IMG/VR virus record: IMGVR_UViG_2778261153_000009
Span: 1 to 41,300 of that record
Source of the DNA: a virus
Lineage: Duplodnaviria; Heunggongvirae; Uroviricota; Caudoviricetes
Strand: one strand, 5' to 3'
DNA length: 41,300 nt
Below are positions 1-23,961 of this stretch, piece by piece. Under the pieces are notes generated by a model, which did no database searches, was not told the origin of the DNA, and worked only from the letters and a program-made list of their open reading frames with translations. Position numbers and translations under genes: made by a program. Numbering within the stretch: the stretch's first letter is position 1; each line of letters starts with the position of its first letter.

Positions 1-1719
1 ATGATTTTTAGGGATAGCTTGAGAGTATTACCTTATGGTCGAGTAGATAATGATTTCTTCCAGATAGAAGAAAGACGTTCATGGAATGCAGGGCGATATT
101 ATTGGTCTAATAGAAGGATTTTTGGTTATATTGGAATTACTCAATCCAGTAATAAAGAGCTGAAAGATAAGTCGGGGAGAGAGGGATTCATAAGAAACCA
201 GGCTGCAAGAGAACTGAAAACTATTATATCTAATTTGTTAACTGAACTTGCTGATAGATTTTTTGGTTCACGTTCTGATGACCGTAAAGAGCTTTTAGAA
301 CAAGTTAAGCGTGAAAAAGAGTTAAGAAAATCTGCTCAACAACAAGCTCGAAAATCAACACAAAAAAGTTTTTCAGAAGCTTTGAAGAATCAGACACCAG
401 TTCTTGATGCTTCCTTGGAGGCTGTTAAAAGGCTGAAAACTAAGCTTGATAAAACTGATGGTTCGTTAGATTTAAACTATCTTAAAATTATAGACAGTGA
501 TCTTACAAACTTAGATGCGTTGCGCAGTGAAATTAAAACGCCTATCAAACCTCCAAAACTTGGAATGTATGAAGAGAAATATAGAGACTACAGAGATAAA
601 TTTAATGAGTTCTCTGCGTATATTCTACAAATGAAGTTAGCAATTAATAAACTTGATTCTGAATTAAATAAACTTGAGCCTTCATTGTCAGCGAAAAATC
701 ACCTTGAAAAAAATCAAGGTATTATTAATTCTAAACTAACTAAGTTTAATAACACGATAGAGGAGAAGATACATTCTCTTTTAAAAAAATGGGCCGATGA
801 AATAAAGGTTGATCGAAGTGATTATTATGCTAAAACTATATCAGTTGTTGATTCAATAGATAATGATTCACAAATTGAAAATGTGTTTAATTTGCTCGAT
901 AGTTTATATGTTGAGTCAGTTGATACCCTAACTTTCAAATATCAATCAATAATAAAAGGTCTCGATAGATTATTTGAAGGTATAAACTTAGATTCAGCAT
1001 TCTCATTATCTGAAGAAGAACGCTCATATTTTGAAGAAAAAGCTAAAAGTTTAAACGCGCTTGCACAGTTAGGTATTAGTGTTGAGATAATATCTCATGA
1101 ACTTGAAGAAATGGATTCTATGGTAACCAGAGGACTAAACTCTCTTCCTACTTCTGTAAAAGAACACCCTGGTTTTTCATTGGCGTTAAATGCTCACAGA
1201 TCGCTTACTCAACAAATACGTTTCTTATCACCTTTGAAAATATCAGGTTATCAATCCAGGCAGAGAATAACTGGAAAAAATATCATGGATTATGTCCTGA
1301 AGTTCTTTGGGGAGCGTTTCGAACGGCAACGAATAACTATTGAATTTAGTGAAGAGTTTAAGCAAATCGCAATAACAGATATACCATCAAGGATCTATCC
1401 TGTTTTTACTAATATTATCAACAATGCAATGTATTGGGTCAGTCTGTCAAATAATAGGCTCATAAAGATTGGTTTTGTGAATTCTTTGGTTATCATAGCA
1501 AATTCTGGTCCGGCAATTGATACCGATGATATCCCGCGACTATTTGAACTATTTTATAGCAAAAGAGCAAATGGACATGGGGTAGGTCTGTATCTATGTC
1601 GAGAAAACCTTGCTGTTGCACATCATAAAATATGGTATTCAGAACCTGATGAAGGCGATAACTATTTAATAAAAGATGGCGCTAATTTTGTGATCCAGTT
1701 CAATGGAGTGGAGTTCTAA
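1..1719 (+). CDS. Histidine-kinase-like protein (HisKA + HATPase_c) with long charged N-terminal region that looks coiled-coil; possibly 5'-truncated by window edge
   Basis: H-box EIISHELEEMDSMV (His codon 1096..1098), N-box FTNIINNAMYWV, G1 ANSGPAID, F FELFYS, G2 GHGVGLYL; H-to-N spacing ~105 aa. Confidence 0.7.
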   Translation: MIFRDSLRVLPYGRVDNDFFQIEERRSWNAGRYYWSNRRIFGYIGITQSSNKELKDKSGREGFIRNQAARELKTIISNLLTELADRFFGSRSDDRKELLEQVKREKELRKSAQQQARKSTQKSFSEALKNQTPVLDASLEAVKRLKTKLDKTDGSLDLNYLKIIDSDLTNLDALRSEIKTPIKPPKLGMYEEKYRDYRDKFNEFSAYILQMKLAINKLDSELNKLEPSLSAKNHLEKNQGIINSKLTKFNNTIEEKIHSLLKKWADEIKVDRSDYYAKTISVVDSIDNDSQIENVFNLLDSLYVESVDTLTFKYQSIIKGLDRLFEGINLDSAFSLSEEERSYFEEKAKSLNALAQLGISVEIISHELEEMDSMVTRGLNSLPTSVKEHPGFSLALNAHRSLTQQIRFLSPLKISGYQSRQRITGKNIMDYVLKFFGERFERQRITIEFSEEFKQIAITDIPSRIYPVFTNIINNAMYWVSLSNNRLIKIGFVNSLVIIANSGPAIDTDDIPRLFELFYSKRANGHGVGLYLCRENLAVAHHKIWYSEPDEGDNYLIKDGANFVIQFNGVEF

Positions 1720-1720
1720 T

Positions 1721-3469
1721 ATGACAGTGGCAAATTATAATTCTCTTGTCCAGAAAACTTTCTGCGAAAATGCAATTCGTTCCGTTGTCATGATTGATGA
1801 CGATTTTCTGACGTATTCTGAATCAATCAGGGCGTTGAATAACGAAGTTGATTTAGACTACAACAAAATTGACTCATCTAAACGAGCCGCTACTCTTGAG
1901 AGCTTTTTTCAATCTAAAAATATGATTTGTGATGTTGACAATGGTTCTGTTAATTTCGATGTGGATCGGATTAGAAAATCAGATCTTATTATTGTAGATT
2001 ATCATCTTGATAATAATGCACCTGATAAAACACTTAAACCATTACAAGATTTGAAAGACTCCGATCATTTAAATATGATTGTAATATATACTAGAGAGAA
2101 TTTAGAAACGGTTTGGATGCAGATATCATCGACTCTCAAAGGTGCTCTGGATATCAACAGCTTGATCATTGACTACGATAATGAAGATGTCCAAAGTTAT
2201 TGGGAAGACGTTGTATTACCGAACTTAAATGATAATGGTAATAAAGCTCTCACAAGAGATGAAACAATAGCCTATATTAAAGACAGTAAGCCTTGTAGAA
2301 GAATTAAAAGATTAATACATGATGATGCTGTGTTGGAGGATCAAAAGGATAAAAACTTCATTGCAAAAATGATTGCAGAATATGCTGTGTCTAGAAATGC
2401 AATTATTTCTAGCAACACATCTGGCAATGTCATTCGGGGTGATGAAAGCGGAGTAAAATGGATTCAATGTGGTAATATCTTTGTCTCCCTATTTCATAAG
2501 GTTCAAGATGATCATGAAAACGATGGAGATAGGATTTGGCAAACTCTCAATGATTCTCTCATTGAATGGAAACCATCTTATTATCAGTTAATAAAATCTG
2601 AAATTCAGAATGCAATCGAAGCTGAGGCTTTATCTTTTGTAAATCATTTGGCTAACGATCATTACGGTCAAGCTGCGTGGTTAAATGAGATATTAAAATC
2701 AGACTCGCCTGATATTAGATGTAGAAATATTGACTTTGTATTTGGTAATTTATCAGAAGAGCTTTATCAAAGACTTAAAAATAATAATACGCTGGATGAA
2801 TTTATCAAAAGTGTTTTTGATAGCTATTCAAATGAATACGCTAACAGCGGAGTTGCTGCATTGCTCCAATATTGCTCTTCAAAAATGGATCTGCCATCAA
2901 ATAATGATACTTATCACGAAATGTATCATGCTTTAAATATGAATTTGTCTTCAAAGAATTTTGAAGATGGTCATATTTCTACTGGCACTATTTTCTTTGA
3001 TACAGAGTCGAACAAATGGTATTTATGTGTATCTGCGGCATGTGATTTGGTTCCTACTCAGGGTAACGACCCTCACCATGTAAGATTAAGTCCGCACAGG
3101 CTCATTAAAGTTCTGGAGCTTTTTAACGCCAGTCAGAGTAAAGCATTGCCATTTGCTGAACATTCGAAATATATATATGTAATGCATAAAAATCAAAGAA
3201 AATATCTCTCTATTTTCGAAGGGGATAAAACGCTTCCTGTTGTTGATTATATGGTGGTGTTGAATCATGGAACAACAGTTGATGGCGAAGAAAAAAATAT
3301 TATTTCTGCCGTGTTTTTAAGTAATATGGATGGCAACGTGCAAAATGTTCCTGTCCGACTCAAACTTAAATCTCAACTGAGAACTGGTTATGCAGAAAGA
3401 TATCAGGCTATAGCGTCTCAGTATAGCTCAAGGATTGGTGTGGATTATGTATCAATGATGCTACCATAA
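1721..3469 (+). CDS. Receiver-like N-terminal domain fused to ~430-aa domain of unknown function
   Basis: ATG 1 nt after upstream stop with SD GGAGTGGAG; receiver-like pattern VVMIDDD / LIIVDYHL (Asp codon 1997..1999) / MIVIYT / K~140; C-terminal domain not recognised. Confidence 0.55.
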   Translation: MTVANYNSLVQKTFCENAIRSVVMIDDDFLTYSESIRALNNEVDLDYNKIDSSKRAATLESFFQSKNMICDVDNGSVNFDVDRIRKSDLIIVDYHLDNNAPDKTLKPLQDLKDSDHLNMIVIYTRENLETVWMQISSTLKGALDINSLIIDYDNEDVQSYWEDVVLPNLNDNGNKALTRDETIAYIKDSKPCRRIKRLIHDDAVLEDQKDKNFIAKMIAEYAVSRNAIISSNTSGNVIRGDESGVKWIQCGNIFVSLFHKVQDDHENDGDRIWQTLNDSLIEWKPSYYQLIKSEIQNAIEAEALSFVNHLANDHYGQAAWLNEILKSDSPDIRCRNIDFVFGNLSEELYQRLKNNNTLDEFIKSVFDSYSNEYANSGVAALLQYCSSKMDLPSNNDTYHEMYHALNMNLSSKNFEDGHISTGTIFFDTESNKWYLCVSAACDLVPTQGNDPHHVRLSPHRLIKVLELFNASQSKALPFAEHSKYIYVMHKNQRKYLSIFEGDKTLPVVDYMVVLNHGTTVDGEEKNIISAVFLSNMDGNVQNVPVRLKLKSQLRTGYAERYQAIASQYSSRIGVDYVSMMLP

Positions 3470-3995: not shown

Positions 3996-5225
3996 TTAGG
4001 CTACCAGAGCATTTGATCTTTGAGCTTGAACGTAATCACTCCACCATTGCATCAAACTCTGTCGCTCTATCAGATATTCTGCACGATTGTATGCTGCGAT
4101 AATTTCATCTTTTTTCGAGTGGGCAAGCGCTGCCTCAAGAACTTCAGCTCTGAATTTACCAGACTCCTCTGCCGCTGTTCGTGCAATAGAACGCATACCG
4201 TGAGCTACAAGCTCGCCTCCGAACCCCATTCGGATGATAGCTGCGTTGGCTGTTTGTTCATGCATATGATTAAGAGGCGCTTTTATGCTGGGGAAAACCC
4301 ATTCTCTATGCCCACTTATTGATTTCATTAATTCAAGGATGCGCAAAGCTTCTTTACTCAAAGGAACTTTGTGAAGCTTTTTCATTTTCATGAAATCAGC
4401 AGGAATGTTCCAAATGCTGTTGGTTGTATCAATATCAGACCACCTTGCGCGAACGGCTTCACCCGGACGAACCCATGTCAACAATTGCCATTCAATTAGC
4501 ATACGTGTTTCCAACCGGATTGACGCATTCGTCAAAGATTCCATAAACCTTGGCAATTCGCTTGGGGGAAGGGCAGGCATATTTTGCTTTTTTGGTTTAC
4601 TGAATCTTTGACCAAGGTTGTCAGCCGGGTTGAACTCAATAAGTTCTTCAGTAGCTGCCCACCGGAAGATTTCATTCAGACGTGAAATGATACGGCGTAG
4701 AGTTTCCAATACGCCTCGTTGCTCAATAGGATCAAGGTGTTGTTTTAAGAGCTTAGGTCGGATCTCATTGATAGGGACATTACCCAGACCGGGAAAGACA
4801 TTTCTCTCTAAGCTGCGCCAGATGTCTGCTGCATGGTCTTGTGAGATACCTGATGTCTTTACCTTCTCATCTAACCATTTCCGCGCTACGGCTTGGAGAG
4901 TGTGCTCAGTAGCACTCTTTAATGCCTTCGCCTTATCGTTGTTATGGATTTGGGGATCAACACCATTTGCCAGAAAGGAGAGATATTCATCACGTAAGGC
5001 TCTGGCTCTTGCAAGGGTAAGGTGAGGATATGTCCCAAGGCTCATTTTGGTTCTTTTCTTGCTCACTGGTACTGCATACCTGAAATACCAATTTTTCTTG
5101 CCTCCTTTCGCCAAAGGAGCGATTCGTAGAATCAGACCATCACCGTCAAACAAGTTGATTTCTTTATCGGCTGGCTTGGTGCTTTTGATTTCAGTGTCAG
5201 TGAGCTTCTTAGCGATTTTTGCCAT
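3996..5225 (-). CDS. int: Tyrosine integrase, P4 family (IntA-like)
   Basis: N-terminus MAKIAKKLTDTEIK...LFDGDGLILRI, C-terminal SLMQWWSDY typical of P4-type integrases; start moved to Met15 of the ORF by analogy with IntA. Confidence 0.85.
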   Translation of the reverse strand: MAKIAKKLTDTEIKSTKPADKEINLFDGDGLILRIAPLAKGGKKNWYFRYAVPVSKKRTKMSLGTYPHLTLARARALRDEYLSFLANGVDPQIHNNDKAKALKSATEHTLQAVARKWLDEKVKTSGISQDHAADIWRSLERNVFPGLGNVPINEIRPKLLKQHLDPIEQRGVLETLRRIISRLNEIFRWAATEELIEFNPADNLGQRFSKPKKQNMPALPPSELPRFMESLTNASIRLETRMLIEWQLLTWVRPGEAVRARWSDIDTTNSIWNIPADFMKMKKLHKVPLSKEALRILELMKSISGHREWVFPSIKAPLNHMHEQTANAAIIRMGFGGELVAHGMRSIARTAAEESGKFRAEVLEAALAHSKKDEIIAAYNRAEYLIERQSLMQWWSDYVQAQRSNALVA

Positions 5226-5390
5226 TTTGGGACCCTCGGTTTTTGGACCCTTCTTAGTGGGTCCCATTCAGGGTGCCATAACTCGTAGTTCTCAGCAATT
5301 CTCACTGGACGACAATAGACGTAAAAAAGCCCGCAGAGCTTGTGCTGTGTGGGCTTAGTAGACTTCATTGAACTTCAAACAACTAAAAAG

Positions 5391-7043: not shown

Positions 7044-7067
7044 AAAGCCACTTAAGTGGCTTTTTTT
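7044..7067 (+). terminator. Rho-independent terminator (hairpin AAAGCCAC-TTAA-GTGGCTTT + T-run)
   Basis: Perfect stem followed by TTTTTTT between convergent genes; overlaps int stop codon. Confidence 0.5.
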
Positions 7068-8224
7068 GTGATATTGCTGGTCGTATTACCGTCATATTCC
7101 TTTAAATATGAACCATAATGACGAAATAACATTTCCGGCCCTTTATGCCCCATTTGAGCTGCAAGCCAAAACAGGTTTGCTCCCCGGCTGATATGGCGGG
7201 TGGCGAATGTATGCCTAGTTTGATATGGATTTCTGTAACGAATACCTGCTTTTCGCAATGTTGGCACCCATGCTTTTTTCCTGATTGCATCAGCACTTGC
7301 CCAAGGCTTATTGGTCTTTGGATCTTCAAAGACAGTAGTATCCTTCATGAATGTAAATGGCTTCTGATTTATCAGCGCCAACATTGCCTCTTCTGTCAGT
7401 TCAACTTTCCGAGTACCTGCTTTTGTCTTTGTCCCTTTGATAACACCGACAACACTTGCGCTCTGGACATGGGCAGTTTTTCCAACAAAGTCGATATCAC
7501 GCCATCGAAGGGCACATAATTCAGAACTACGCAGGCCTGTATGTATAGCGAACCGGAACAGATTTTCCCATTGTTTGTTTCCGGCTGCTGCTAGTAATGC
7601 ATCAACTTCTGCTGGTGATAGCGGATCAACTACGTAGCTGCTTTCTGCTTCTGACTTATCACTTTGGTAGCGCGAAGCTGTTACTAACGATACGGGGTTA
7701 ATTTGAAGTACCCCATCGGTCACGGCTTCATCAAGTGCTGACCGCAGGAAAGATAACTGGTTGCGAATTGTTTTTAAGGTCGTTTTCTGATTTTGAATCC
7801 ACGCTTTCAGGGTTGCTGGTGTTAATTCACTTGCAGGGCAAATGTGAAGTGAGGCTAACGCACTACGGCATTTTTTATAGCCACCAATCGTAGAGGGTGA
7901 AAGTTTTCTTGTTTCGCAGATTTCAAGATATTCGTCCAGGTACATCTTTACCGTTTTGCCTGCAGCAGCATTACCAAAAATTTTCAAACGAGCAGAACGG
8001 GGAAAATATTCTGCATAAATGAATGTTCCCCTTTCGATCTTATTATGGATTTCGCCGAGTGTACGCTCGGCGTATTTAATGTTCTTTGGTGTTACTTCCA
8101 GATTGGAAAGCGGCTCACGACATCTAACTCCTTTGTAGGTGAAAGTTATATTGATCGTTTCTCCCTGGCGGTGTTTCCTGATTGTTACGCCGCGCGGTAG
8201 TTTGAGCAGTTTTGTCTGGCCCAT
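7052..8224 (-). CDS. int: Phage tyrosine integrase (lambdoid)
   Basis: C-terminal RHTFATRHISRGANLFWLAAQMGHKGPEMLFRHYGSY catalytic region; N-terminal arm-binding-like domain. Confidence 0.85.
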   Translation of the reverse strand: MGQTKLLKLPRGVTIRKHRQGETINITFTYKGVRCREPLSNLEVTPKNIKYAERTLGEIHNKIERGTFIYAEYFPRSARLKIFGNAAAGKTVKMYLDEYLEICETRKLSPSTIGGYKKCRSALASLHICPASELTPATLKAWIQNQKTTLKTIRNQLSFLRSALDEAVTDGVLQINPVSLVTASRYQSDKSEAESSYVVDPLSPAEVDALLAAAGNKQWENLFRFAIHTGLRSSELCALRWRDIDFVGKTAHVQSASVVGVIKGTKTKAGTRKVELTEEAMLALINQKPFTFMKDTTVFEDPKTNKPWASADAIRKKAWVPTLRKAGIRYRNPYQTRHTFATRHISRGANLFWLAAQMGHKGPEMLFRHYGSYLKEYDGNTTSNITKKAT

Positions 8225-15614: not shown

Positions 15615-16105
15615 TCATGAGTCTGTTAAATGACGTTCAGAAATTCATTGAAGCCCATCCGGGGTGTACTTCCGGAGACATTGCGGATGCTTTTGCTGGT
15701 TACTCACGGCAGCGCGTTCTGCAGTCAGCAAGCAAGTTACGTCAGAGTGGGCGTGTGGCTCACCGTTGTGAAGGGGATACACGCAGACATTTCCCGCGCC
15801 TGACTGAGAGAGCGCAGGAGCCGGAACCACAACCAGTTCGTGAAACCAGACCTGCGCGCAATTTCTATGTCGGCACTAACGATCCCCGGGTGATTTTGTG
15901 CCTGACCCGCCAGGCGGAAGAACTGGAGTCAAGGGGCTTATACCGTCGTGCTGCAACCGTGTGGATGGCGGCATTCCGTGAAAGCCACTCCCAGCCAGAA
16001 CGAAACAATTTTCTGGCGCGTCGTGAGCGGTGCTTACGGAAAAGCAGCAAGCACGCTGCATCGGGTGAAGAGTGGTATCTGTCAGGGAATTACGTGGGGG
16101 CTTAA
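15611..16105 (+). CDS. PerC-like regulatory protein (putative)
   Basis: Motif AEELESRGLYRRAATVWMAA resembles PerC-family signature. Confidence 0.4.
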   Translation: MIMSLLNDVQKFIEAHPGCTSGDIADAFAGYSRQRVLQSASKLRQSGRVAHRCEGDTRRHFPRLTERAQEPEPQPVRETRPARNFYVGTNDPRVILCLTRQAEELESRGLYRRAATVWMAAFRESHSQPERNNFLARRERCLRKSSKHAASGEEWYLSGNYVGA

Positions 16106-16758
16106 TGAGTAATAAATATTGCCAGGCGCTGGTGGAACTGCGGAATAAACCAGCCCATGAACTGAAGGAAGTGGGAGATCAGTGGCGCACGCCGGATAAC
16201 ATTTTCTGGGGAATTAACACCCTGTTTGGTCCGTTTGTTCTGGATCTGTTCACTGACGGTGATAACGCCAAATGTGCCGCGTATTACACGGCGGAAGACA
16301 ACGCGCTGGCGCATGACTGGTCAGAACGTCTTGCGGAGCTTAAAGGTGCTGCCTTTGGTAATCCCCCATACAGCCGCGCCAGTCAGCATGAGGGGCAATA
16401 CATCACCGGCATGCGTTACATCATGAAACATGCCAGTGCCATGCGTGATAAGGGCGGGCGCTATGTTTTCCTGATCAAAGCTGCCACCAGCGAAGTGTGG
16501 TGGCCGGAAGATGCGGACCATATTGCTTTTATTCGCGGGCGTATTGGTTTTGAACTGCCTGCCTGGTTTATCCCGAAGGATGAGAAGCAGGTGCCGACAG
16601 GCGCTTTCTTCGCTGGTGCTATTGCTGTTTTCGACAAGACCTGGAAGGGACCGGCAATCAGCTACATCGGGCGCGATGAACTTGAGGCATGTGGTGAAGC
16701 CTTTCTGGTGCAGGTTCGCCAGCAGGCGGAAAAACTGGTCAGGGAGATGGCGGCATGA
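16105..16758 (+). CDS. Phage N6-adenine DNA methyltransferase (Dam-like)
   Basis: FGNPPYS catalytic motif; ATG overlaps upstream stop (TAATG). Confidence 0.75.
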   Translation: MSNKYCQALVELRNKPAHELKEVGDQWRTPDNIFWGINTLFGPFVLDLFTDGDNAKCAAYYTAEDNALAHDWSERLAELKGAAFGNPPYSRASQHEGQYITGMRYIMKHASAMRDKGGRYVFLIKAATSEVWWPEDADHIAFIRGRIGFELPAWFIPKDEKQVPTGAFFAGAIAVFDKTWKGPAISYIGRDELEACGEAFLVQVRQQAEKLVREMAA

Positions 16759-18297: not shown

Positions 18298-19293
18298 GTG
18301 ACCGTGAGAGCACTACTAACCCCTGAAATTGCCCCGCGTATGGGGATCGTATTGTTCAGACCAGGTTCAGAGCTGATGCCCCTGTTTATGCAGGGGCGTG
18401 TCCTGCTGGAGCCTGAGCCGGAACGTTATTCATCTTTCGCCAGTGGTGCCGTTCCGGCGGCATCACAACCGCTGGCGGATGATCCTGCCGTTCAGGCCGT
18501 GTTCCGCAATGAGGCAGTGATCCGTCGTGCTGGTGGCGTGGAATGTCTTGAAAGCTGGTTACTTCGTGAAAAAGGCTGCCAGTGGCCTCATTCCGACTGG
18601 CACAGCGAGAACATGACCACAATGCGACACGCTCCGGGCGCAATCCGTCTGTGCTGGCACTGCGATAACCAGCTGCGCGATCAGTTCACGGAACGGCTGG
18701 AATCAATGGCAACGGATAACTGTGCCCGCTGGGTGTTGTCTGTTGTGCGTCGGGATCTCGGTTTTGATGACAGTCACGTTGTGACAATGCCGGAACTGTG
18801 CTGGTGGCTGATTCGTAATGATCTGGCGGATGCCTTACCGGAAAGTGCAGCCCGTAAGGCACTGAGATTACCGAAGCCTGTTGTGCCGTCTGTTACCCGG
18901 GAAAGTGACCTTGTGCCTTCGGTTCCTGCCACCAGCATCATCCAGGATAAGGCGAAAAAGGTGCTGGCGCTGAAAGTGGATCCGGAGTCGCCGGAGTCTT
19001 TTATGTTACGCCCAAAACGTCGCCGCTGGGTTAATGAAAAGTACACGCGCTGGGTTAAGACACAGCCGTGTGCATGTTGTGGAAAGCCTGCTGATGATCC
19101 CCACCACTTGATAGGCCACGGTCAGGGTGGGATGGGTACAAAAGCGCATGACCTCTTTGTGTTGCCTTTGTGCAGAAAGCATCACGACGAGCTGCATGCG
19201 GATACCGTGACATTTGAAGAGAAGTATGGCTCCCAGCTGGAGCTGATATTTCGTTTTATCGATCGTGCGCTGGCAATTGGCGTGCTGGCCTGA
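18298..19293 (+). CDS. DUF968-family phage protein with C-terminal HNH-like Cys/His cluster
   Basis: CACCGKPADDPHHLIGHG...CRKHHDELH at C-terminus. Confidence 0.55.
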   Translation: MTVRALLTPEIAPRMGIVLFRPGSELMPLFMQGRVLLEPEPERYSSFASGAVPAASQPLADDPAVQAVFRNEAVIRRAGGVECLESWLLREKGCQWPHSDWHSENMTTMRHAPGAIRLCWHCDNQLRDQFTERLESMATDNCARWVLSVVRRDLGFDDSHVVTMPELCWWLIRNDLADALPESAARKALRLPKPVVPSVTRESDLVPSVPATSIIQDKAKKVLALKVDPESPESFMLRPKRRRWVNEKYTRWVKTQPCACCGKPADDPHHLIGHGQGGMGTKAHDLFVLPLCRKHHDELHADTVTFEEKYGSQLELIFRFIDRALAIGVLA

Positions 19294-19295
19294 TT

Positions 19296-19658
19296 TTGTG
19301 GAGAAAGTTGATGCGTGATATGTATGAAGTGATGGATCGTTGGGGAGCTTGGGCTGCTTCAGACAATAGCGGAGTGGACTGGCAACCGGTAGCCGCTGGC
19401 TTCAAGGGGCTTTTACCTCATGGCAAAAAGTCCCGGATTCAGTGTGATGATGATGAGGGGCTCATGATCGATGGGTGCGTAGCTAGATTAAGAAAGTACA
19501 AACCAGAAGAGTATGAATTAGTTATAGCCCATTTTGTGGTAGGGATTTCATTGCGAGCCATTGCTAAGAAGAGAAAGTGTTCGGATGGGACTATCAGGAA
19601 AGAGTTGCAAACATCGCTTGGTTTCATTGAAGGCATTGTTTGCACTCTTGCCTGTTAA
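19296..19658 (+). CDS. Late-gene antiterminator Q-like protein
   Basis: Resembles enterobacterial prophage Q proteins (MRD..ERWGAWAA...AAGFKGL...C-rich zinc motif); lies upstream of lysis genes. Confidence 0.7.
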   Translation: MWRKLMRDMYEVMDRWGAWAASDNSGVDWQPVAAGFKGLLPHGKKSRIQCDDDEGLMIDGCVARLRKYKPEEYELVIAHFVVGISLRAIAKKRKCSDGTIRKELQTSLGFIEGIVCTLAC

Positions 19659-19679
19659 CTATTCTTAACTGTCTTCTAG

Positions 19680-20564
19680 TTATATTGGGCGCTTTGAATT
19701 CGATTTAAAGCGTCTTCCACTTATCCCTGAAATCCAAATGTCTTCCTCAAGAAAGTCAAGAAGGGCTTTTATTTCTTTTTTTGATGAAGGCATGACAATT
19801 TTCTCAACACCGCCAACTATTATGGTTTGTAAGGGGAAATTGACTTTAGCAGCTTCGGATTTAAACTTTGACATATTTTGGGGTGTTAGCATCCCAGTCT
19901 GATTTATTAGTGTTACTTTATTTCTTATCACTGTATCTGCAACGGATTTTAGATCAAAACCTTGGGGAGTAGAAAATACACTAAGTTGACTAAATGCATT
20001 AAGTTCTTGGTCAGTAGCAGCAGAAAAATAGGACGACATGTCAAAAATGCTTCTTAGATTAAAGAAACTCTTAAATCGTATTGTATCATTGATAATTATT
20101 GCAACTAGTTTATCATCAACATTAAAACCGATGCTATTAGCTTTACTAAAGGTAGTTTTGCTTGCAAAAAGCTTTCCAAAGAATGATTTTGAGGTATCTA
20201 AGATTTGTTTTTTGTTGAAGGTTTGTAGCGCAATAATATTGGGGTTTGCTGGCGCGTCAACACCAACAAATAATGCTTTAATATAACCAATATCAATTTG
20301 GCTGGGATCCCAGACAGGCACGGCGGTAGGCCTATTGACTGCGTCAATCAGGCGTGCAGAATCAGTAAAGTTTTGTATTTCAAAACACTCACTATGTTTT
20401 GGTGTATAACCGGCATAGAATGGTATCATATTGTTATGATGACTTTCAAAATATTGACGCTGTTGTTGGAAAATGGCCGTAACAGAAGTACTTGCTGTTG
20501 CATCAAGTTCGACTCTAACAATTCTCGTTGCAATTGTATTATCTATTACTGCAAAAAGTGCCAT
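19680..20564 (-). CDS. Hypothetical soluble protein (AT-rich cargo, partner of membrane protein)
   Basis: 294 aa, 5 nt downstream of the membrane gene on the same strand; no family recognised. Confidence 0.55.
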   Translation of the reverse strand: MALFAVIDNTIATRIVRVELDATASTSVTAIFQQQRQYFESHHNNMIPFYAGYTPKHSECFEIQNFTDSARLIDAVNRPTAVPVWDPSQIDIGYIKALFVGVDAPANPNIIALQTFNKKQILDTSKSFFGKLFASKTTFSKANSIGFNVDDKLVAIIINDTIRFKSFFNLRSIFDMSSYFSAATDQELNAFSQLSVFSTPQGFDLKSVADTVIRNKVTLINQTGMLTPQNMSKFKSEAAKVNFPLQTIIVGGVEKIVMPSSKKEIKALLDFLEEDIWISGISGRRFKSNSKRPI

Positions 20565-20569
20565 GGTTA

Positions 20570-21091
20570 TTATCCTTTAACATGTAGAAATGTGTAGTCT
20601 GTTAATTGAATAACTGTAAATTTGATATCTTTAATATCAGTAATGACTGATTTAGAAATCAATACAAAACCTACGCCGGTGTCATCTTCAGCTTCGTAAA
20701 ATTTATAACCGATAAGTGACAATACTGGGTTAAAGTTATAGTTCTCGGAAAAGCTGATGTAAAATAACAATGACAAATAAAAGAATAACGCATATGCTTT
20801 ATTTTCAGCAATAGAGTCTGTTCCTAGGAGAGGGAATAAATAGCTTAAGAAATAATTAGTTACTTCTTTGTTAGCGGGAGAAACTGAACTAATATTTTTT
20901 GTCAGAGGTTCAAGTTGTTTCTCAGCATATTGAATCAGGCCTATTGCTAATAACCAACTTGCTATGCCAACGCATAAGCTATATTGCATCAGCCAAACCG
21001 TATCTTTTACATATCCAATAAAAAATAGAGTTGCGCAAACAGGTGCAATTGAGCTTGCTGTTAATAATAAGCGTGCTAATTTGTTCATCAT
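20570..21091 (-). CDS. Membrane protein, ~4 TM helices (AT-rich cargo)
   Basis: 173 aa with four hydrophobic segments; SD AAAGGA. Confidence 0.55.
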   Translation of the reverse strand: MMNKLARLLLTASSIAPVCATLFFIGYVKDTVWLMQYSLCVGIASWLLAIGLIQYAEKQLEPLTKNISSVSPANKEVTNYFLSYLFPLLGTDSIAENKAYALFFYLSLLFYISFSENYNFNPVLSLIGYKFYEAEDDTGVGFVLISKSVITDIKDIKFTVIQLTDYTFLHVKG

Positions 21092-21179
21092 GATATCCTT
21101 TGTACTGTTTATGCATACAGCACTTTACATCATGTACTCCAAAGTATCTATCTTGTGAAGAATCTTACACTAAATACTA

Positions 21180-21280
21180 CAGAAAAAGTTAACGCGTACG
21201 CAAAAAGTATTATATCGTGTTAAGAGTGGTTACTTCGCCACACAGCTTAAACCCGCCATTGAGCGGGTTTTGTCGTTTTT
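21180..21280 (+). promoter_or_regulatory. Putative late promoter (PR'-like) with tR'-like terminator
   Basis: TATTAT -10-like hexamer at 21208..21213; hairpin AAACCCGC-CATTGA-GCGGGTTT + T-rich tail at 21249..21280. Confidence 0.35.
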
Positions 21281-21421
21281 GGGCCTAGGGATTCGTTGGG
21301 CCTGGTCTATCCCGCAGTTATCCATTGGCTCGGCTTCTTTGACGTTTCCGCTTCTGATTTGCGGTACATGATGTTCCCTCAATTTGCACCTCCTGTATTG
21401 CGAGGTGAGAGATAACTACAA

Positions 21422-21748
21422 ATGCCTCATAACCCAAATACCTGGCTGGAGTTGGTCCAGAGCTGGTGGCGTGGAGACACACCGCTGGGCGCAGTGATTA
21501 TGTCGATCGTTATGGCTGGCTTGCGCATTGCCTATTTTGGCGGTGGTGGTGGCTGGAAGCGAAAAACGCTCGAGATTTTGCTCTGTGGCGCTTTGACGCT
21601 GACCTTTGCATCCGCTCTTGAGTATGTCGGATGGCCTAAATCGCTTTCTGTTGCCATTGGTGGCGGTGTTGGGCTGATCGGTGTCGATGCTATTCGTGGG
21701 GCTGCAATGCGAGTAATCGGTAACAAATTTGGTAGCACGAAGGAGTAA
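21422..21748 (+). CDS. Holin (putative)
   Basis: 108-aa membrane protein with Gly-rich TM segments and charged C-terminus immediately upstream of endolysin. Confidence 0.6.
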   Translation: MPHNPNTWLELVQSWWRGDTPLGAVIMSIVMAGLRIAYFGGGGGWKRKTLEILLCGALTLTFASALEYVGWPKSLSVAIGGGVGLIGVDAIRGAAMRVIGNKFGSTKE

Positions 21749-21751
21749 TTT

Positions 21752-22234
21752 ATGCAGGCACTAAATTCCCAGCGTAAAGCTTTCCTGGATATGGTTGCAT
21801 GGTCAGAAGGAACGGATAACGGGCGACAACCGACACGTAACCACGGTTATGACGTTATTGTCGGTGGTGAACTGTTCACTGATTACTCCGATCACCCTCG
21901 CAAACTTGTCACGCTAAACCCGAAACTTAAATCAACAGCCGCAGGACGTTATCAGCTTCTTTCACGCTGGTGGGATGCTTACCGTAAGCAGCTTGGGCTG
22001 AAAGACTTCTCTCCAAAAAGCCAGGATGCTGTGGCATTGCAGCAGATTAAAGAGCGTGGTGCTTTACCGATGATTGATCGCGGCGATATCCGTCAGGCTA
22101 TTGATCGTTGCAGCAATATCTGGGCGTCATTGCCGGGCGCTGGTTATGGTCAGTTCGAACATAAGGTTGACAGCCTGATTGAAAAATTCAAAGAATCGGG
22201 CGGAACGGTCAGAGAAATTCAGCTATATGAGTAG
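21752..22234 (+). CDS. R: Endolysin, lambda R-like lytic transglycosylase
   Basis: Near-identical to lambda R as I recall it ([22 protein letters not shown]...). Confidence 0.9.
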
Positions 22235-22691
22235 AGTAACTGCGATTCTGTCCTCTCTGGTTATCTGCACCATCGTCTGCCTATCATGGGCTGTTAATCA
22301 TTATCGTGATAACGCCATCGCCTACAAAGAACAGCGCGATAAAGCGAAGGAAAAACTCAGCCAGGCGAACGCCACCATTACTGAGATGCAGCAGCGCCAG
22401 CGTGATGTTTCTGCGCTCGATGCGAAATACACCGGAGAACTTGCAAATGCTAAAGCAACTATTGAACAGCTTCAGCGTGATGTTGCTGTTGGCACTAAGC
22501 GGCTGTTCCTCGCCGCTAGTTGCCCGAGAGTGCAATCAACGACCATTACCACCAGCCTGGATGATGCTACCGCCCCCCGACTTACTGACACCGCTCAACG
22601 GGATTATTTCACCCTCAGAGAGAGAATTGAAATCAGTTATAAACAGATAAGAGCATTGCAGGACTATATCTCTAGTCAGTGTGAAAACTAA
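22227..22691 (+). CDS. Rz: Spanin inner-membrane subunit Rz
   Basis: [30 protein letters not shown]... closely matches lambda Rz. Confidence 0.85.
22447..22650 (+). CDS. Rz1: Spanin outer-membrane lipoprotein Rz1 (embedded in Rz, +1 frame)
   Basis: Lipobox LALSGC and Pro-rich [11 protein letters not shown]...[10 protein letters not shown] inside the Rz gene. Confidence 0.6.
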
Positions 22692-22772
22692 AATTGCTTT
22701 CGATGTATGGATCTGGACATCTTTTTTTTCTACTATGCTGACTGAGAATTGAAACGTATATAGATATTCTAT

Positions 22773-23531
22773 ATGAAAAGAAAAAAATTAGAAGGTCCCG
22801 GGTGTGAATCATATGAAGGGTTAGATGTTGAATATTATATTGATTCCGAAACGGGGGAATTTAAAGCGGTTTATACATTCAATAATGAAATTGTAGATCG
22901 CATAAAATTGAGTGGGCGTATTGCCGATAGAGCATCTTCACTGTCCCTAATTCATAGGGACTTAAAAAGTGCTAAAGAGTGGTACCAAATAGCTAATGAA
23001 CTGGCAGGGAGAAACGAATTAAGGACAGATGGCAAGTTATACGGGAATATACTTGATATAGATTTATCAAGTGAAATTAGAGCGTTATTTGTGGCAAGCC
23101 TAACGTTTTATGGTAAAGCTTTCTCTGAAGCTAAAGGGAGAAAGTTAAAGATGGAGCGTGATTGGCTTGATTCTGAATATTTTGGGTTGCATGACTGTAT
23201 TATTAACTACAGGCATAATTTTGCAGCACATAGCGGCAACCAAGACTATGAGTCAGCAGAAACTTCATTGTTACTAATAAGGAAAAATGGGAAAACATTT
23301 TATCAAGCAGTGACAGATAGAAAACAACTGAGCATGATTGGTGTCGAGGACGAGCATGTTGATATGATTAATTTATTTGAACATGCGATACAGGTTGTTG
23401 AGAAAAAATATAATGAAACATTAGAGAGAATTAGAACCTATGTCATGCAAAAGAGTTATTCTTTTTGGTGTTTAGCTGCCACAGGGAAAGATCCCGTCAA
23501 TTTAGATAAGTTAAATAAGAAGAAAAAATAA
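22773..23531 (+). CDS. Hypothetical protein (AT-rich cargo after lysis cassette)
   Basis: 252 aa; contains YRHNFAAH (R-x5-H) motif; own terminator downstream. Confidence 0.55.
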   Translation: MKRKKLEGPGCESYEGLDVEYYIDSETGEFKAVYTFNNEIVDRIKLSGRIADRASSLSLIHRDLKSAKEWYQIANELAGRNELRTDGKLYGNILDIDLSSEIRALFVASLTFYGKAFSEAKGRKLKMERDWLDSEYFGLHDCIINYRHNFAAHSGNQDYESAETSLLLIRKNGKTFYQAVTDRKQLSMIGVEDEHVDMINLFEHAIQVVEKKYNETLERIRTYVMQKSYSFWCLAATGKDPVNLDKLNKKKK

Positions 23532-23566
23532 ACCTACTCTTCACATTAGTAACATTAGTAGATGCT

Positions 23567-23597
23567 AAGCCACTAGCAATCGATGGTGGCTTTTTTA
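23567..23597 (+). terminator. Rho-independent terminator
   Basis: AGCCAC-loop-GTGGCT stem followed by TTTTTT. Confidence 0.5.
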
Positions 23598-23610
23598 TTG
23601 GAGCTTACCA

Positions 23611-23961
23611 ATGCCACCACGAACCCCAAAAGCCTGCCGTGTTCGCGGCTGCCGTAATACCACGACAGACCCGTCAGGCTACTGCGAAAGCCACAAAAGC
23701 GAAGGCTGGAAGCAATACAAGTCAGGACAATCCCGTCATCAGCGCGGTTATGGTTCTAAGTGGGATGTTATCCGTGTGCGTGTGCTGCAACGTGACAAAG
23801 GCCTGTGTCAGTTATGTCTGCGTGCTGGTGTGGCGCGTGAAGCGAAAACCGTTGATCACATCATCCCTAAAGCACATGGCGGCACTGATGCCGACAGTAA
23901 TCTGCAGAGTCTGTGCTGGCAGTGTCATAAGGCGAAGACGGCCCGTGAACGGCTTAAGTGA
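23611..23961 (+). CDS. HNH endonuclease (terminase-associated)
   Basis: HNH motif DHIIPKAHGG...N...CWQCH with Cys pairs; immediately upstream of terminase. Confidence 0.8.
   Translation: MPPRTPKACRVRGCRNTTTDPSGYCESHKSEGWKQYKSGQSRHQRGYGSKWDVIRVRVLQRDKGLCQLCLRAGVAREAKTVDHIIPKAHGGTDADSNLQSLCWQCHKAKTARERLK

Follow-up and report, generated by a model that had tools for sequence, protein, structure and literature searches.

Kiwa, a two-gene anti-phage defence system, was reportedly first described by Doron et al. in 2018. Five Kiwa operons drawn from different clusters were all found to be anti-phage, with both genes required, and four of the five also lowered conjugation; each variant had its own phage specificity, and about half of Kiwa loci were located on mobile genetic elements, with roughly 200 in prophages (PMC11785009). 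Here we describe a cassette of two genes, kwaA and kwaB, found in the IMG/VR virus record IMGVR_UViG_2778261153_000009; the window, i.e. the whole stretch of DNA analysed, comprises positions 1 to 41,300 of that record (41,300 nt). We consider it highly probable that the cassette is an intact two-gene Kiwa defence operon, kwaA preceding kwaB, carried as a moron by an SfII-like prophage of Escherichia coli of the lambdoid, Mu-tailed kind.

The Kiwa operons of E. coli O55:H7 RM12579 and of ECOR8, ECOR12 and ECOR49 (PMC11785009) share with the present one the order of the two genes and the architectures of KwaA and KwaB, and the location on a mobile element fits as well. They differ in the size of the products, the solved proteins having 195 and 315 amino acids (aa) vs 172 and 294 aa here, and the PADLOC sub-models with the best matches here, PDLC00216 and PDLC00225, mark a sub-clade distinct from canonical Kiwa. 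The pair is a genuine Kiwa pair and its clade lies far from the structurally studied one. The system as such was already known: it is present in PADLOC and in Pfam, and RefSeq annotates proteins identical to those encoded in the window.

The initial annotation of the window had described a small membrane protein with four transmembrane (TM) helices followed by a soluble 294-aa protein and had remarked on a resemblance to the KwaA/KwaB layout, proposing profile searches and structure prediction as checks. The resemblance is borne out by full-length PADLOC matches, by the RefSeq names of the identical proteins and by structural comparison. The two genes are adjacent and co-oriented, with the membrane protein encoded first and the DUF4868 protein second. 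For KwaB, the PADLOC model PDLC00225 is matched from end to end (E 2.3e-150; residues 1-294 on profile positions 1-291 of 291), five more KwaB models giving weaker matches, and the Pfam model KwaB PF16162 (formerly DUF4868) is matched by residues 108-281 with 31.7 bits vs a gathering score of 26.3. The identical protein in RefSeq, WP_001163088.1, bears the name 'Kiwa anti-phage protein KwaB-like domain-containing protein'. A hydropathy scan detected no hydrophobic segment in KwaB, and its isoelectric point is 9.2 for the whole protein and 9.5 for the C-terminal half alone. When the AlphaFold2 model of KwaB (47 homologues, pLDDT 78.5) was compared by Foldseek with the Protein Data Bank (PDB), the top five matches were KwaB chains (9mrx_D, 9nyu_A and 9mtn; E 5e-6 to 8e-4, probability 1.00); the sixth had E 0.56, i.e. 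significance ends with the KwaB chains. The predicted fold, an N-terminal Rossmann-like domain joined to a C-terminal DUF4868 domain, is that of KwaB, with the caveat of a low global TM-score.

KwaA is matched over its full length (1-172 of 173) by the PADLOC model PDLC00216 (E 1.9e-83), and 11 more KwaA models match more weakly. The RefSeq protein identical to it, WP_001037093.1, is called 'KwaA family protein', and the identical gene call carries the label PF28043:KwaA in a precomputed annotation; the Pfam copy used in our scan had no KwaA model, and PF28043 was seen in precomputed annotations only. In the AlphaFold2 model (51 homologues, pLDDT 76.9) helices span residues 3-27, 31-58, 76-89 and 97-113, while strands are formed by residues 61-71, in the loop between helices 2 and 3, and by residues 129-135, 140-145, 156-161 and 166-169 at the C-terminus. 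The model thus has the four helices of the initial annotation, but the hydropathy scan gives a strong signal for the first two only. The predicted arrangement, four TM helices with a cytoplasmic beta-barrel made from the first intracellular loop and the C-terminus, is the KwaA fold. The top seven Foldseek matches in the PDB were KwaA chains (9mrg, 9mrx_A and 9mrr; E 5e-6 to 1e-4, TM-scores 0.53-0.71) and the eighth had E > 1, so that the models of both proteins match only solved Kiwa structures (9mrx, 9mrg, 9mrr, 9mtn and 9nyu). Conserved motifs of KwaA are SPANKEVTNYF and GYKFYEAEDDTG; conserved residues of KwaB include D150, K152, R171, R214, K216 and K291/R292.

Several observations weigh against this assignment or against the function that it suggests. 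The NCBIfam equivalog for KwaA, NF041622, is matched with E 5.1e-12 and 46 bits, below its cutoff of 100 bits, and therefore KwaA is a homologue rather than a member of the canonical subtype. Identity to the solved proteins is 16-19% for KwaA and 11-13% for KwaB, and at the latter level the published KwaA-KwaB interface residues and KwaB DNA-contact residues (R142, R167, K187, R233, N134 and D169 in O55:H7 numbering) are not mappable reliably. Searches of PDB sequences with single KwaA, single KwaB or clade profiles gave nothing significant. A broad profile from 82 diverse KwaB relatives had two entries named 'Kiwa protein KwaB' as its sole matches among PDB sequences; the alignment, collinear from profile positions 40-293 to chain positions 53-312, has a non-significant E of 0.56, and in this weak alignment to the 9mrx KwaB the residue D169 is paired with the conserved D150. 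Since the sequence searches were non-significant, the link to the solved structures is made by fold comparison and by the Pfam and PADLOC models. The global TM-score between the KwaB model and solved KwaB is only 0.42-0.47; our guess is that a different domain hinge and the low-confidence or disordered loop at residues 125-138 lower it. As to expression, a scan upstream of kwaA found no minus-strand promoter at ≥9/12 consensus. AT-rich foreign DNA is silenced by H-NS in E. coli, and the AT-rich cargo may be silenced in vivo.

The layout of the locus (Table 1) is that of a compact operon. In the list of open reading frames (ORFs) kwaA, at 20570..21091(-) with 173 aa, and kwaB, with 294 aa, lie on the same strand and are separated by 5 nt (20565-20569), exactly as first annotated. 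The 5′ end of kwaA reads ATGATG, of which RefSeq picks the second ATG; an AGGA motif stands 4 nt upstream of the first and 7 nt upstream of the second, and we favour the second because of the RefSeq choice and the spacing of the ribosome-binding site. The ribosome-binding site of kwaB, AAGGA, lies inside the final codons of kwaA, 8 nt ahead of the kwaB ATG. Given this placement and the 5-nt spacer, kwaA and kwaB are likely to be translationally coupled, as judged from the sequence.

Table 1. Features of the Kiwa locus in the window and contents of the corresponding slot in related phages and prophages; coordinates preceded by L and a number are those of the comparison stretch so designated
Feature	Coordinates	Strand or orientation	Description
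Antiterminator Q	19296..19658	(+)	Left backbone flank; PF06530 Phage_antitermQ, E 1.5e-45
Inserted AT-rich cargo	19659..21176		~1.52 kb, Kiwa operon and upstream region; from comparison with the empty slot and relatives
kwaB	19680..20564	(-)	294 aa; N-terminal alpha/beta domain and C-terminal DUF4868; predicted DNA-binding effector
kwaA-kwaB junction	20565..20580	(-)	Minus strand reads TTAAAGGATAATAACCATGGCA; sequence read directly
kwaA	20570..21088	(-)	172 aa (173 from the ATG at 21091); inner-membrane protein; predicted membrane sensor and scaffold
Region upstream of kwaA	21092..21181	(-)	Cargo-specific, absent from SfII and other relatives; presumed Kiwa promoter and ribosome-binding site
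Conserved backbone element	about 21182-21280	(+)	Late-promoter-like region, short leader and intrinsic terminator; near-invariant among relatives
Holin S	21422..21748	(+)	First late lysis gene, right backbone flank; PF05106 lambda S holin family, E 5.7e-25
Slot of SfII (SfII_49/50) and of E. coli STEC17-183	L002 1845-3459; L004 1626-3240	reverse	PADLOC candidate PDC-M53 (A, E 1.6e-32; B, E 1.8e-54)
Slot of E. coli 126096	L003 1642-3369	reverse	TIGR04255-family protein and two hypothetical proteins
Slot of E. coli CT01	L005 1838-2833	reverse	SDH-type Clp-fold serine protease
Slot of E. coli U013	L006 1664-2683	reverse	339-aa hypothetical protein
Slot of Stx2a phage WGPS2	L027 907-2470	reverse	gp26 and gp27
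Slot of phiP27		forward	GIY-YIG nuclease gene between Q and the conserved element
Slot of E. coli CB6837 Stx2 prophage	L028 3572-4100		Empty

The strong AT-richness noted at first sight is real: the GC content is 0.358 in kwaB and 0.326 in kwaA vs 0.46 in Q and 0.53 in S, and 300-nt windows further out on both sides have 0.50-0.58. The flanking genes are, as first annotated, an antiterminator Q (in RefSeq an 'antiterminator Q family protein' in identical prophages, with an ATG start giving 115 aa) and a lambda-type holin. Homology to SfII and to the prophages of E. coli 126096 and STEC17-183 restarts at the right edge of the cargo, about 21177-21182. On the left side Q and kwaB are convergent, with their stop codons 21 nt apart; no hairpin or terminator was found in this gap, nor a minus-strand terminator after kwaB. 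A repeat search revealed no direct or inverted repeats bracketing the cassette. We rejected transposition as the route of arrival in view of the absence of such repeats, and for the same reason it is most likely that recombination brought the cassette into its slot, which opens after the Q stop codon and closes at the late promoter element.

This element, ~100 nt long, has the form ...AAAAAGTTAACGCGTACGCAAAAAGTAT...TGTTAAGAGTGGTTACTTCGCCACACAGCTTAAACCCGCC-loop-GGCGGGTTTT and includes the conserved sequence GTTAAGAGTGGTTACTTCGCCACACAGC. It is near-invariant in the window, SfII, E. coli 126096 and another E. coli prophage, Stx2a_WGPS2 and phiP27, and it ends with a strong intrinsic terminator (21249-21270) followed by a T-run. 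In Shiga toxin (Stx) phages the element stands between Q and the genes for a methyltransferase, tRNAs and stx. In lambdoid phages the late promoter comes directly after Q, ahead of a terminator which Q-modified polymerase is able to pass, and stx is located downstream of this promoter (PMC6266700). From this layout and from the placement of the element in Stx phages and in CB6837 we infer that it is the pR'/qut/tR' module where Q acts; consensus scanning found no clear −35/−10 pair for the late promoter, which is thus a putative one. The two arms of an inverted repeat of 17 nt (88% complementary) are located in the cargo upstream of kwaA (21127-21143) and in the backbone ahead of S (21358-21374), so that they flank the late promoter/terminator element; the repeat may be due to chance. 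An Rfam scan of 19000-23800 gave nothing meaningful.

If the element is the late promoter module, the cassette lies outside the late transcript and not in the sub-slot of stx, and two statements of the initial annotation need correction. The cassette was said to be transcribed against the late operon; its orientation is indeed the reverse one, but it is situated upstream of the late promoter element and is instead convergent with the Q/early-right transcript. It was also said to occupy the slot between Q and S where Shiga toxin genes reside, which is true of the broad interval between Q and the lysis genes, while stx is downstream and the cassette upstream of the promoter element. The stx morons, in the same broad interval, have the forward orientation and are located downstream of pR'/tR', within the Q-dependent late transcript (PMC6266700), whereas the Kiwa cassette is reversed, upstream of pR'/tR' and presumably under its own promoter. 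We therefore rejected its classification as a late-operon moron of the stx type, given its position upstream of the promoter/terminator element and on the opposite strand.

Comparison with related prophages, another check proposed at the outset, showed the slot to be empty or differently filled, so the cassette is not a part of the conserved core. The empty version is found in the Stx2 prophage of E. coli CB6837, where the conserved element begins ~10 nt after the Q stop codon and is followed by a small ORF, a methyltransferase gene, tRNAs and stx2A. Six of the seven occupied slots hold reverse-oriented cargo, phiP27 being the forward case. PDC-M53 of SfII and STEC17-183 and gp26/27 of WGPS2 share with the Kiwa cassette the slot, the reverse orientation and a size of one to three genes; their proteins are unrelated, and a defence function is candidate or unassigned. 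When the two flanks were joined and searched for in complete E. coli genomes, about 250 of these had 80% or more of the joined sequence at a single place, and Kiwa is present in 33 of the 250.

The clade to which the cassette belongs is large. A word-indexed search retrieved 89 relatives of KwaB and 90 of KwaA, with identity down to 46 and 38%, respectively; the named relatives are all from Enterobacterales, except one KwaA from Avibacterium (Pasteurellales). A profile search against 1.84 billion cluster representatives (clusters at 50% identity) gave 1031 KwaB-like clusters at E ≤ 1e-3 and 321 at E ≤ 1e-30, nearly all with proteins of 285-300 aa, and PF16162 is matched by 68 of 82 sampled KwaB relatives. 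A KwaB of identical sequence is indexed in 2319 blocks of public assemblies, and thousands of E. coli assemblies have it. The cassette is present, with DNA identity of at least 99.2%, in 33 of 5426 complete E. coli genomes, and in many unrelated strains its copies are 0-3 nt apart in each gene; the phage collection contained no genome with the cassette at the DNA level and two with protein homologues.

Outside E. coli, KwaB identity is 76% in Klebsiella pneumoniae prophages, 63% in a Salmonella enterica island, 52% in Proteus mirabilis prophages and 47.5% in the copy of Klebsiella phage ST846-OXA48phi9.1. These same-clade systems of Klebsiella, Proteus and Salmonella have the same protein lengths and gene order and are all AT-rich. 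In Klebsiella and Proteus the cassette is again reversed and located between a Q-family gene and a holin gene, with other holins, terminases and Q families, while the Salmonella copy belongs to a non-phage island that also encodes integrases, a DUF87 ATPase and a methyltransferase. The E. coli cassettes are always linked to a Q-DUF968-KilA-N module, and their far side varies: there may be lysis genes of the SfII type, a lambda-like phage whose terminase is Nu1/gpA, or the remnant of a prophage. One E. coli genome, CP181453.1, has two identical Kiwa cassettes in two different prophages. In E. coli ES10 and ES8, both from Aquarana catesbeiana (bullfrog), insertion sequence elements are located within the span matched by the cassette or its flanks, with an ISKox3 transposase in ES10 and an IS150 transposase in ES8.

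Between the E. coli, Klebsiella, Salmonella and Proteus copies the proportion of synonymous differences (pS) is 0.71-0.85, i.e. saturated, and that of nonsynonymous differences (pN) is 0.09-0.35, thus both genes are under purifying selection. The GC content of the cassette is 0.32-0.38 in all hosts, whatever the composition of the flanks; together, purifying selection and AT-richness in every host argue against a decaying remnant. KwaA is better conserved than KwaB across genera (72-85% vs 51-76% amino-acid identity). It is possible that KwaB evolves faster as the DNA-binding partner targeted by phage inhibitors.

The mechanism that we propose for this locus is transferred by homology from PMC11785009. 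KwaA would form tetramers in the inner membrane by means of its four TM helices, and KwaB dimers would dock on the cytoplasmic beta-barrel of KwaA, linking the tetramers into a larger assembly. The complex would be triggered when the membrane is perturbed, be it by phage attachment or the phage tail, by the ejection of DNA or by a conjugative pilus. Using its basic half, with the DUF4868 domain, KwaB would next bind the DNA that enters, upon which replication forks would stall and late transcription would fail; the cell would survive, as this would not be abortive infection. The basic character of KwaB and the predicted architecture of KwaA are in keeping with such a mechanism. By analogy, the cassette likely shields the lysogen, and hence the prophage, from superinfecting phages. 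We infer that induction of the resident prophage would not fire the system, given a trigger that consists in entry at the membrane. The lambda protein Gam inhibits KwaB (PMC11785009), and no Gam homologue is present in the annotation of a near-identical prophage.

In the lysogen kwaAB would be expressed from its own promoter within the ~90 cargo-specific nucleotides upstream of kwaA, a requirement that follows from repression of the phage lytic promoters in the lysogenic state; the best candidate found by eye is TAGATA-17-TAAAGT, with 8/12 consensus. After induction, early-right transcription reading through past Q would run antisense over kwaB and may damp kwaAB, because the operon is convergent with Q and has no intervening terminator.

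How far the published mechanism extends to this pair is the point at which another explanation has to be weighed, namely that the proteins are Kiwa by descent and have a different trigger or effector, e.g. a membrane superinfection exclusion that blocks DNA entry, or sensing of something other than curvature. Such a shift is what extreme divergence from the solved proteins (11-19% identity) might hide; both proteins are also shorter, and the KwaB loop at 125-138, short and predicted with low confidence, is the putative counterpart of the solved 40-residue DE loop that contacts TM2 of KwaA, while the Kiwa variants are already reported to differ in phage specificity (PMC11785009). However, the architecture of both proteins and the operon layout have been kept, the C-terminal half of KwaB is still basic, and in the literature five of five divergent Kiwa operons tested were anti-phage; we regard a changed mode of action as improbable.

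Still less probable, in our judgement, is that the cassette is silent or in decay, a passenger that at present does nothing in this lysogen. The failure to detect a promoter at the consensus threshold upstream of kwaA, the very low GC content with the H-NS silencing that it may attract, and the presence of the cassette in only 33 of the 5426 genomes could be read in this way, but both ORFs are intact with next to no divergence between unrelated strains, purifying selection is strong across four genera, and the ribosome-binding sites and the coupled arrangement are preserved. A role in the lytic cycle of the phage, for instance in lysis timing or as a holin regulator, is brought to mind by the position next to S, R and Rz and by one product being a small membrane protein. 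To this we give almost no credence: no match to a holin, antiholin, spanin or lysis regulator was found in Pfam, PHROGs or NCBIfam, and thus not the known non-defence family that, in the initial annotation, was to count against the defence assignment. Moreover, kwaA and kwaB point in the direction opposite to the late operon and are situated upstream of the late promoter element, sister phages with the same lysis genes have an empty slot or unrelated cargo in it, and the clade is also found outside prophages, in the Salmonella integrase island. An intact Kiwa defence operon is the reading that we retain.

The window contains an apparently complete SfII-like prophage. Its lambdoid early region comprises genes for integrase, repressor, Cro, replication, Dam, RusA, KilA-N, DUF968 and Q; after Q follow the lysis genes, HNH and terminase genes, an HK97-type head and a Mu-like contractile tail and baseplate. 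No tRNA, which might have marked the attachment site, was found in the window. The early-right operon includes a gene for a phage Dam-like N6-adenine methyltransferase (16072-16758(+); PADLOC MTase_II, E 3.9e-158), as is usual among phages of this group; the annotation of the near-identical prophage shows no cognate restriction gene beside it. A second AT-rich gene (22773-23531(+), GC 0.35) occupies a variable slot between Rz/Rz1 and the HNH-terminase genes, where sister prophages have a GrlR-family gene or other small genes. Its 252-aa product matches phrog_8440 (function unknown) and has no match in Pfam, PADLOC or NCBIfam; its 197 homologues, from Enterobacterales, Burkholderia, Pseudomonas and Vibrio, are all named 'hypothetical'.

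The prophage does not extend to the left end of the window. Positions 1-3469(+) and 3996-5267(-) are occupied there by genes for a HATPase_c-domain protein of 572 aa or more, for a 588-aa protein with PF19192 (Response_reg_2) and, beside this pair, for a P4-type integrase; the prophage integrase gene (7052-8224) comes next. The left end looks like a separate integrative island; PADLOC gave no match in it.

For Kiwa itself the locus brings nothing new; it is a small and clean natural case of Kiwa carried by a prophage, in which the insertion boundaries are exact and an empty site is available for comparison. What is added here is those boundaries, the corrected position relative to the late promoter element, the placement in the short clade and the recurrence of this clade in the slot over three genera.

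A more general proposal, which we put forward as a tentative and rather unlikely one, is that many lambdoid phages, Stx phages included, have an orientation-constrained defence hotspot between the end of Q and the late promoter, used in lysogeny only. Were this true, convergent read-through from the early-right transcript would switch the cargo off on induction and act as a built-in self-immunity device; the slot and the short Kiwa clade would have diversified together in E. coli, Klebsiella and Proteus (52-76% identity); and the TIGR04255 trio, the SDH protease, gp26/27 of WGPS2 and the 339-aa protein of U013 would be good candidates for defence systems. The slot is recurrent in SfII-like and Stx phages and its cargo is usually reverse-oriented; as several of the cassettes are unannotated, it is a place to seek defence genes. 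The short Kiwa clade is widespread yet only 11-19% identical to the solved proteins, and is thus informative on the reach of the published mechanism.

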